Shown one piece after another: positions 42,125-42,672 of a DNA stretch of 64,000 nucleotides (its first letter is position 1; each line of letters starts with the position of its first letter). The position numbers and the translations under genes are program-made. The stretch lies in assembly GCF_988243305.1 (NCBI RefSeq), contig NZ_OZ547136.1; one strand, 5' to 3'. The notes below the pieces were generated by a model that did no database searches, was not told the DNA's origin, and saw only the letters and a list, made by a program, of their open reading frames with translations.

Positions 42125-42160
42125 ACCCCGTTTGTTGGCAGCAAGCGGGGTTTTGTTTTT
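42125..42160 (+). terminator. hairpin plus T-run terminator after the endolysin gene
   Basis: CCCCG-(loop)-CGGGG followed by TTTTGTTTTT. Confidence 0.5.
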
Positions 42161-42225
42161 ATGGCAGTAAGCTATGGGAGGCTGCCTTGATTGATTTTAG
42201 CAAACTGATTAGGGAGTTGCGACTC

Positions 42226-42672
42226 ATGATTAGTCAATTACCAAACTGGAAATTTTTGCTGGTCTGGAGCATCCCTTTTTTATGGGTAGTATCCCAGTTA
42301 ATTGTGGCAATTAAGGGGTAGCTATGTCAGACAAACTCATAACGCCGGCAAAGGTCCTGTGTGTGATTGTCGGTATTTCATTTTCACTAATGCTGGTTGC
42401 TCTTTTTCTGTCCCTCGCCTGGGTGATGTTGTCTTCGTCGGGGCTGCTGGGGTGACAGTGACTGATGACATCAGCAGAGCGCTGGCTTTTGCTATTAAGT
42501 GGGTGGCTGTTGGTATTGCTGTGTCTCCGATGCTGTATGGGCTGGCAAAACTGGTCATTGCGCTGAAATCGTGAACTTTAAAAAGATGAGTGCTGAACTT
42601 ATTCGGGCAATGGCATTTGCCATTCGTATTGTGGCCATTGCTGTTCTGGTCTGGGCAATCCGTTGGTGGTGA
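42226..42672 (+). other. array of four tandem small hydrophobic ORFs (31, 43, 40 and 28 aa)
   Basis: 42226..42321 MISQLPNWKFLLVWSIPFLWVVSQLIVAIKG; 42324..42455 MSDKLITPAKVLCVIVGISFSLMLVALFLSLAWVMLSSSGLLG; 42452..42574 (GTG) VTVTDDISRALAFAIKWVAVGIAVSPMLYGLAKLVIALKS; 42586..42672 [28 protein letters not shown]; stop/start overlaps between some. Confidence 0.35.

Follow-up and report, generated by a model that had tools for sequence, protein, structure and literature searches.

The window analyzed here, a stretch of 64,000 nucleotides (nt) from contig NZ_OZ547136.1 of the RefSeq assembly GCF_988243305.1, carries on its + strand a late operon of the lambdoid type, and between the endolysin gene R and the i-spanin gene Rz of its lysis cassette (positions 42,125 to 42,672) lie four consecutive small open reading frames (ORFs) preceded by a terminator-like stem-loop. 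The patterns of substitution in related loci indicate that all four are genuine protein-coding genes under purifying selection in the proposed frames, and the profile searches point to three unrelated families of phage microproteins. We somewhat favor the view that the products are late-expressed accessory membrane microproteins, encoded by real genes and probably related to lysis.

The four small genes

Direct reading of the window places the ORFs, all on the same strand, where a previous model-made sequence-only reading had put them (42226-42321, 42324-42455, 42452-42574 and 42586-42672). With the preferred start of ORF1, lengths in amino acids (aa), matching PHROG families and accessions from the NCBI annotation pipeline (PGAP), they are:

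42187..42321, + strand: ORF1, 44 aa from a probable TTG start, with a basic amphipathic N-terminal segment and one predicted transmembrane (TM) helix; PHROG 6632
42324..42455, + strand: ORF2, 43 aa, a single predicted TM helix, with 33 residues free of D, E, K, R, H, N and Q; PHROG 4906, PGAP WP_001280935.1
42452..42574, + strand: ORF3, 38-40 aa from GTG 42452 or GTG 42458, a short form of a 60-aa family; PHROG 1115
42586..42672, + strand: ORF4, 28 aa, a paralogue of ORF3 ending in ...AIRWW; PHROG 4493, PGAP WP_032140280.1

ORF1 had been read as a peptide of 31 aa; its frame from ATG 42226 stands, and its length does not, as the homologues point to 44 aa from TTG 42187. The frame is open upstream of ATG 42226, and homologues from Enterobacter, Klebsiella, Citrobacter, Salmonella and Pseudomonas phages start with M/V/L-x-DFSKLIRELR, one residue ahead of the DFSKLIRE motif. 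Because the starts of the homologues, from six genera, align at TTG 42187, with the sequence GGGAGG located 5 nt upstream, this codon is the probable true start. Seven related loci carry a stop codon inside the N-terminal extension.

Along the chain ORF1-ORF2-ORF3-ORF4-Rz the stop-to-start distances are 2, -4, 11 and 1 nt, the sole 4-nt overlap being that of ORF2 and ORF3 (GTGA). An ATGA overlap had been reported between ORF4 and Rz; the actual sequence is TGAtATG, with a gap of 1 nt, and the same arrangement is found in the PGAP annotation of a 99.8% identical locus. The Shine-Dalgarno (SD) sequence of Rz (GGTGGTGA) lies within the last codons of ORF4, and the SD-type sequences GGGAG (42212-16) and AAGGGG (42313-18), also reported before, are both present. 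In the 99.8% identical locus PGAP lists ORF2, a 51-aa version of ORF3 with a CTG start, and ORF4 as hypothetical proteins and leaves ORF1 unannotated, and annotators differ on the boundaries (versions of 38, 40, 51 and 90 aa).

The prediction of one TM helix per ORF holds inasmuch as all four peptides reach 1.9-2.9 in a Kyte-Doolittle window of 19 residues, and is less secure for ORF3 and ORF4, in which the uncharged stretches are short. The grand average of hydropathy (GRAVY) of the four peptides ranges from 1.1 to 1.6, and they terminate 0-2 residues past the hydrophobic stretch (...AIKG, ...SGLLG, ...ALKS and ...IRWW), ORF2 being uncharged to its end.

The profile hidden Markov model (HMM) analysis matched ORF1 to PHROG 6632 (6e-5), ORF2 to PHROG 4906 (4.5e-21), ORF3 to PHROG 1115 (6.4e-25) and ORF4 to PHROG 4493 (3.8e-6); ORF3 and ORF4 share PHROG 1115/3246/4493, and the families of all four ORFs are labelled "unknown function". 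Profile-profile comparison of the three families revealed no relationship between them (probabilities ~2% or less). NCBIfam and PADLOC returned no match for the four peptides, and the precomputed Pfam entry is "-" for all ~240 relatives of the three families. Of the three families that of ORF1 has the widest range, with 50 clusters at 50% identity and members in E. coli, Salmonella, Providencia, Citrobacter, Enterobacter, Klebsiella and one Pseudomonas phage, and with a relative in the Shiga-toxin phage H-19B. The relatives of ORF2 form 103 clusters, all from E. coli, nearly all 43 aa long and without a Pfam match, and a genome search with the ORF2 alignment yielded 80 copies, every one of which is 100% identical to the query at the protein level. 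The ORF3/4 family is found in E. coli, E. marmotae and Salmonella, most commonly in forms of 50-60 aa, the top form having 60 aa (MxKYKRILLRLTMKNGLE..DDISRAxAFAIKWVAVGIAVSPxLYGLAKLxIALKS); the basic stretch of 20-30 residues with which these relatives begin is absent from ORF3 and ORF4. Conserved motifs include AFAI[KR] and WKF...RWW.

ORFs of this size are not rare by chance: shuffled sequence contains ~4 ORFs of at least 25 aa per 486 nt, covering 74% of the region, and the case for the four genes therefore rests on conservation and not on the presence of the frames. The ratios of nonsynonymous to synonymous substitutions (dN/dS) were calculated with the Nei-Gojobori method in related loci, for the proposed frame and for the two alternative frames:

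ORF1, first 29 codons: dN/dS 0.40; alternative frames 0.74 and 1.78
ORF2, intact copies: dN/dS 0.43; alternative frames 0.78 and 1.27
ORF3 core: dN/dS 0.17; alternative frames 0.91 and 6.2
ORF4: dN/dS 0.42; alternative frames 0.97 and 1.39

Control values from the same loci are 0.33 for Rz and 0.09 for R. Variable sites of ORF3 fall on the three codon positions in the ratio 15/7/32, and the value for ORF1 splits into 0.63 for codons 2-13 and 0.23 for codons 14-29. Conservation of the reading frames in homologous prophages, on which the sequence-only reading had made its proposal depend, is seen both in the frame-specific substitutions and in the cross-genus conservation of ORF1 and ORF3. Three other gene models were rejected, namely the 90-aa version of ORF3 extended upstream in the manner of PHROG 3246 (stops in relatives, dN/dS ~1.3 over the ORF2 region), the 51-aa CTG-start version of PGAP (a frame with stops, dN/dS likewise ~1.3 over the ORF2 region) and an alternative hydrophobic frame at 42465..42566 (dN/dS 0.91).

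Translation has been recorded for one relative of ORF2. Hucker et al. 2017 found ribosome footprints on 465 intergenic ORFs of the O157 strain Sakai, and XECs191, which they describe as a translated "novel small gene", is one of them, with values in LB of 30 reads per kilobase per million (RPKM) for RNA, 12.6 RPKM for ribosome profiling (Ribo-seq), a ribosome coverage value (RCV) of 0.43 and a coverage of 0.55 (PMC5597208). Under its present name, ECs_1966, it lies in the Sakai prophage Sp10 with an antirepressor gene on one side and Rz on the other; the Stx2 prophage of EDL933 encodes the same protein (EDL933_1392) immediately ahead of Rz. A translation signal, which the earlier reading had also looked to, thus exists for one family member, if a weak one; the ORF1 and ORF3/4 families do not appear in the other Ribo-seq supplements for enterohaemorrhagic E. 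coli.

The two-hairpin leader and the modular arrays

The array is preceded by two RNA elements:

42122..42160, + strand: hairpin 1, a terminator-like stem-loop with a T run
42163..42186, + strand: hairpin 2, the part of the leader that holds the GGGAGG SD sequence of ORF1 (42176-42181), according to the minimum-free-energy fold

The terminator scan bore out the hairpin terminator noted after the endolysin: a stem-loop of 15 pairs resembling an intrinsic terminator (42122..42154) is followed by TTTTGTTTTT. An A run upstream gives hairpin 1 a bidirectional look, and the covariance model of the leader (R1), which mostly picks generic GC hairpins or terminators and is not a specific detector, scores it with 52.6 bits on the + strand and 35.9 bits on the - strand. 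The structure of hairpin 1 is kept across genera, with both sides changed in 5 of the 13 pairs (compensatory), and its T run is strong in the window and weaker in other loci. In the equivalents of hairpin 2, which abut the SD sequence in other loci (variants CCTTG/CAAGG, CCTG/CAGG, CGTT/AACG, CGTTA/TAACG and CATG/CATG), 93% of the cells are paired, and the covariation score is matched by 1 of 500 shuffles. The fold of the window leader comprises hairpin 1, a GGCAG/CTGCC hairpin around the SD sequence and a third helix between the region of the TTG and that of ATG 42226 (-44.6 kcal/mol, z = -3.9).

The same layout, a GC-rich stem-loop flanked by A/T, a U-rich tract and a hairpin of 4-5 bp abutting the SD sequence, occurs wherever a gene of the ORF1 or ORF3/4 type is the first small cistron. 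It is kept behind endolysins of the SAR-lysozyme (signal-arrest-release), GH19 and GH108 types and is also present in the baseplate, tail-tip, tail-fibre and head-connector clusters of Klebsiella, Salmonella SEN34, Citrobacter, Pseudomonas and metagenomic phages. Because in two loci a separate terminator of the upstream gene stands ahead of hairpin 1, the latter is not merely the terminator of that gene. Rfam revealed no match for the window, nor for seven related loci on the relevant strand. Promoter-like sites number 3 in 3.5 kb, with 3.9 expected by chance; the window scan found none ahead of the array, and on the minus strand a single weak site (9/12 matches, 42330-42301).

The sequence-only reading had presented the arrangement as unusual, which it is not: the spacer and array together (649 nt) find matches in 2077 of 5426 complete E. 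coli genomes, 586 of which carry at least 80% of it, and in 203 phage records, mostly of Stx-converting phages. Its statement that canonical cassettes have nothing between endolysin and Rz is true for lambda and for K-12 Qin (rrrQ/rzpQ), where R overlaps Rz directly with none of these genes between, and does not extend to E. coli prophages in general. Among 74 IMG/VR loci with R and an Rz at least 92% identical to that of the window, the following R-Rz gaps were found:

297/298 nt, 18 loci: one 45-aa ORF1-type gene
331/335 nt, 12 loci: one 50-aa ORF4-type gene
478-491 nt, 8 loci: a 60-aa ORF3-type gene and then an ORF2-type gene, in reversed order compared to the window
642 nt, 35 loci: ORF1-2-3-4, as in the window
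1000 nt, 1 locus: an antirepressor gene and small ORFs

In addition, the phage record PhiR5_1 has a gap of 1413 nt with a 231-aa gene and all four small ORFs, and one locus shows the order ORF2-ORF3-ORF2'. The modules are shuffled among related prophages in arrays of 1-4 cistrons. The terminator-like hairpin is present in every R-Rz architecture and, in this Rz family, the array always abuts Rz: by direct reading, the last small ORF carries the SD sequence of Rz and stops a few nt before its ATG in every architecture sampled. A side observation concerns the 335-nt architecture (L025, L073 and similar loci) and L166-L168 (~1985-2010), where an 8-codon mini-ORF with a strong SD sequence (MGREVLSL / MCREVCSL) precedes a 50/63-aa gene of the ORF3/4 type, the stop of the former overlapping the GTG start of the latter (GTGA).

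Elsewhere, ORF3-type genes are found before Rz behind SAR-lysozyme or GH19 endolysins, ORF1-type genes in Enterobacter before an i/o-spanin pair unrelated to Rz/Rz1, and ORF2-type genes beside cassettes of the GH108 or lambda-S type. Lysis cassettes make up most of the sampled contexts, and within them the small genes stand nearly always directly ahead of the spanin genes. Two further loci were noted. An E. coli prophage (L169-L171, 400-2470) has another kind of lysis cassette, with holin_8, holin_3_7 and a GH108 endolysin, after which come a hairpin and genes for a 65-aa membrane protein, a 38-aa ORF3-type protein, a 44-aa ORF2-type protein and a 51-aa lipoprotein, with no recognizable i-spanin. 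In L174 (1-710) a hairpin with ORF1-type and ORF2-type genes lies upstream of a lambda-S-type holin and not between endolysin and Rz.

The surroundings of the array in the window are:

34605-35423, + strand: Q, the array lying downstream of it in the late operon
38845-40713, + strand: SASA esterase
40864..41079, + strand: class II (S21-like) pinholin, first gene of the lysis cassette (PHROG 9876/20 holin; PGAP "class II holin family protein" at the homologous locus)
41084..41434, + strand: YdfR/DUF1327-like gene between holin and endolysin (PHROG 406, 3.7e-68; PGAP "YdfR family protein")
41498..42031, + strand: endolysin R, a lysozyme with a hydrophobic SAR-like N-terminus (PHROG 7 endolysin, 2e-61; PGAP "lysozyme")
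42032..42121, + strand: conserved non-coding spacer of 90 nt after R, found in all architectures
42674..43141, + strand: Rz, the i-spanin (PHROG 13 Rz-like spanin, 7.4e-76; PGAP "lysis protein")
42894..43079, + strand: Rz1, the o-spanin, embedded in Rz (from the ORF list)
44836-47054, + strand: terminase
49270-50583, + strand: portal

Several features of this neighborhood deserve mention in their own right. The spacer (~90 nt) contains the blocks GCAGAATA, AAAAATGAC and GGATAACACRAAATC, which are conserved in E. coli and Salmonella after endolysins that are not related to one another; spacer and hairpin could jointly make up a small RNA (sRNA) derived from a 3' untranslated region, and Rfam has no match for it. 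The YdfR/DUF1327 gene is a second unexplained insert within the lysis cassette, and related loci have longer variants of it with an adjoining antisense ORF. Another terminator-like hairpin (40796..40824, + strand) lies between the genes of the SASA esterase and the pinholin; it shares its position with the prophage sRNAs PasA and PasC, for which a 2026 preprint gives the order esterase-PasA-holin-lysozyme. The papers on prophage sRNAs map the Pas sRNAs upstream of the holin and not in the R-Rz spacer, and Tree 2014 nowhere mentions lysis genes.

The position of bor in lambda, past Rz/Rz1, is taken here by a gene (43480..43806, + strand) that encodes a 108-aa lipoprotein with a TonB C-terminal domain (TIGR01352, 6.8e-15); PHROG 1267 calls its family "Rz-like spanin", which looks like a mislabel, and by analogy with Cor and Llp the protein might disturb TonB-dependent receptors. 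Farther downstream, the 345-nt spacer between the gpI-like and gpJ-like tail genes contains a cassette-like GC hairpin (60653..60698, + strand, R1 25.6 bits) with no hydrophobic ORF behind it. The Citrobacter prophage L185 carries an ORF1-type cassette at the corresponding site, directly upstream of its gpJ-like gene, and the hairpin of the window could mark an empty or decayed cassette site.

Possible roles of the array

In the interpretation we favor, the array would be a cassette composed of a conserved leader and four tightly packed cistrons, the last of which runs into Rz, and each ORF is modelled as a very small single-pass protein of the inner membrane. Transcription would reach the array only when the Q-modified polymerase reads through hairpin 1, and since no promoter was recognized in the stretch that separates the array from the terminator, the late transcript antiterminated by Q would be the only source of the peptides. 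Ribosomes would start at the SD sequence of ORF1 and proceed by coupling or re-initiation along the chain into Rz/Rz1. The peptides, with basic N-terminal residues, a C-terminal hydrophobic segment and almost no periplasmic tail, would insert N-in. They would be dispensable accessories and not core lysis proteins, and in what is the weakest step of the proposal they would most likely tune an envelope or lysis step, e.g. the triggering of the holin or the behavior of the i-spanin; a specifically lysis-modulating role, taken by itself, seems less likely than not. We further speculate that the hairpin-led unit (stem-loop, SD hairpin, interchangeable microprotein ORF) could be an undescribed mobile phage cassette expressed by antitermination only, whose peptides would bind TM segments of lysis proteins (TM domain 2 of the pinholin, the SAR domain, the anchor of Rz), making the array a tunable lysis clock, a scenario that we regard as rather improbable.

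Several observations weigh against the favored interpretation. Cassettes of the ORF1 family also occur in baseplate, tail-tip and head-connector clusters, and an ORF3-type gene was found after a tail-fibre gene, which speaks against a strictly lysis-specific role; because R overlaps Rz without any such gene in lambda and K-12 Qin, the array must be dispensable for lysis. The position of the genes favors a lysis-related role, such as the modulation of lysis timing that the sequence-only reading had offered as a guess, and the structural-cluster contexts, together with lambda and Qin, favor moron-like cargo. Some loci have a frameshifted ORF2 or a stop in the N-terminus of the ORF1-type gene (frameshifted copies in L050 and L059-L067), as expected of dispensable prophage genes. 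The SD sequences of ORF3 and ORF4 are weak or missing, and their hydrophobic cores are short, with 16 (ORF3) and 11 (ORF4) residues free of D, E, K, R, H, N and Q. In codons 2-13 of ORF1 the synonymous divergence is low, and constraint at the nucleotide level may add to the conservation of this part. The Ribo-seq signal of XECs191 is low and comes from uninduced cells and from a prophage region present in multiple copies, and the literature yielded no function for any family member.

The contexts outside lysis cassettes bear directly on the alternative that the genes are moron-like cargo without a role in lysis, acting on the host or on other phages (superinfection exclusion, in line with another guess of the sequence-only reading, or a block of inner-membrane factors of DNA entry) from a permissive junction of the late operon, which we take as an unlikely, if serious, candidate. 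It would account for the ORF1- and ORF3-family cassettes at tail, baseplate, tail-fibre and head junctions of other phages, for the R|Rz junction also accepting Ant/Rha-type inserts, and for the presence or absence of the small ORFs differing between close relatives; it agrees with the phage records that carry these genes, all of which seem to be temperate, with the cassette of Citrobacter L185, where the hairpin has a promoter-like site (9/12 matches) ahead of it and the ORF a terminator behind it, and with the Sakai member, which has some RNA and footprints without induction. In the window, however, no promoter-like site stands ahead of the array and the strong terminator in front would stop expression in a lysogen, and the lack of a PADLOC match and the predominance of lysis cassettes among the sampled contexts also speak against cargo. 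The tight packing invites another explanation, in which the ORFs are translated spacers: after a terminator and a ~150-nt untranslated stretch, coupled cistrons would reload ribosomes for the start of Rz, and the peptides would be by-products. The short stop-to-start distances, the SD sequence of Rz within ORF4, the last small ORF ending a few nt before Rz in every sampled architecture and the R/Rz overlaps of lambda and K-12 Qin are all in line with this idea; nonetheless, we consider it improbable, as the amino-acid conservation exceeds what an open frame needs (ORF3 with dN/dS 0.17, the motifs AFAI[KR] and WKF...RWW), the same families are found where no Rz follows, and one cistron would be enough for coupling where four are present.

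The sequence-only reading had also suggested that the peptides resemble type I toxins, which would be silenced by an antisense RNA. In favor of this are the small size and hydrophobicity of the peptides, the structured 5' leader and the terminator look of hairpin 1 on the minus strand, by which an antisense RNA over the start of ORF1 could be ended; against this, the sequence shows no sign of an own promoter or of an antisense RNA, the lone minus-strand site at 42330-42301 is not accompanied by any conserved minus-strand promoter and the total of promoter-like hits is at the chance level, no Rfam family matches, four different peptides share one operon, and the genes always lie within phage late operons and never in stand-alone loci, so that we give this reading very little credence. 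No more probable is a non-coding or decayed region, be it what is left of a single larger gene or a scar of recombination, which the frame-specific substitutions largely refute. The missing N-terminal 20-30 residues of ORF3 and ORF4, the disagreement of annotators over boundaries and the ease with which such ORFs arise in shuffled sequence could be taken as signs of decay. However, because the three families are unrelated the region is not one decayed gene, in agreement with the possibility of a degraded larger gene that the earlier reading had raised against itself being set aside: each family is a separate annotated gene elsewhere, the alternative frames, including the 90-aa extension, have stops in relatives and dN/dS values of 0.8-1.3, and short forms that start from an ATG of their own occur naturally (P0216, 38 aa, in 122 blocks of the sequence collection).

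The sequences themselves are already catalogued as hypothetical proteins and PHROG families of unknown function and are very common in E. coli prophages; for the conserved leader of two hairpins, and for the way in which unrelated microprotein genes are shuffled behind it like cassettes, we found no description. A large share of E. coli prophages have such genes in their lysis cassettes, Shiga-toxin phages among them (an ORF1 relative in H-19B, ORF2 relatives in Sakai Sp10 and in the Stx2 prophage of EDL933), and in the latter phages the release of toxin and phage is governed by lysis timing. The textbook cassette of holin, endolysin and Rz/Rz1 omits them, many phage records leave them unannotated, and their start codons vary with the pipeline. 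If they modulate lysis or the spanins, they would be new regulators of a well-studied pathway; if they are exclusion genes or other cargo, they would constitute a compact passenger family of the late operon with an unusual terminator-first layout. Either way, the two-hairpin leader is a defined and directly testable RNA element.

Comparison with known systems

A close counterpart is XECs191/ECs_1966 (EDL933_1392), which belongs to the family of ORF2 (65% identity) and occupies the same place directly upstream of Rz, and differs in its length of 48 aa, in its N-terminal extension and in following an antirepressor insert instead of ORF1. The holin PHROG gave no match for the four ORFs, while it does match the true holin at 40864-41079; holins and antiholins have a charged hydrophilic C-terminal tail after the last TM domain, which the four ORFs lack, and these accordingly do not appear to be holins or antiholins. 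Nor do they look like spanins, as an i-spanin has an N-terminal TM domain and a periplasmic coiled coil of ~100 aa and an o-spanin has a lipobox Cys, and on inspection the ORFs, with 28-44 aa, have neither. As small late membrane proteins whose genes lie no more than a few genes away from that of a SAR endolysin, and being neither holin, endolysin nor spanin, they are reminiscent of Mu gp25 and of the antiholins P1 LydB and S21-71. The releasin gp25 of Mu is a protein of 99 aa with N-out/C-in topology, a 73-aa acidic cytoplasmic domain and membership in DUF2730 (PMC9239132). Compared to it, the ORFs are shorter (28-44 aa), have the hydrophobic segment at the C-terminus, the opposite predicted topology and no Pfam family, and are probably not releasins.

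With the type I toxins (Hok, TisB, Ldr, Ibs) the ORFs share the size range and the single hydrophobic helix; these toxins have their own promoter, an antisense RNA and a stand-alone locus, none of which is apparent for the array, and neither Rfam nor NCBIfam reported a match. Phage morons offer a nearer parallel, among them gp15 of HK97, which is said to be an exclusion protein. They too are small membrane-protein genes with a mosaic presence or absence between conserved late genes and at several junctions, and the array shows this pattern in at least five R-Rz gap architectures among loci with Rz at least 92% identical and in its absence from K-12 Qin. A classical moron has a promoter in front, a terminator behind and expression in the lysogen, whereas the array of the window has a terminator-like hairpin in front and no detectable promoter. 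Citrobacter L185 has a promoter-like site before its cassette and a terminator after it, and the weak Sakai Ribo-seq signal may point to expression in lysogens.

Lambda couples Rz to R through an ATGA overlap. The R/Rz junction of lambda and the rrrQ/rzpQ junction of K-12 Qin resemble that of ORF4 and Rz, as in each case the upstream stop falls within a few nt of the start of Rz and the SD sequence of Rz is located inside the upstream coding sequence. The upstream cistron in lambda and Qin is, however, the endolysin gene, and here it is a conserved microprotein gene, with a terminator between R and the array. As judged from their sequences, the small ORFs are placed like coupling cistrons for Rz and yet appear to be constrained as proteins.

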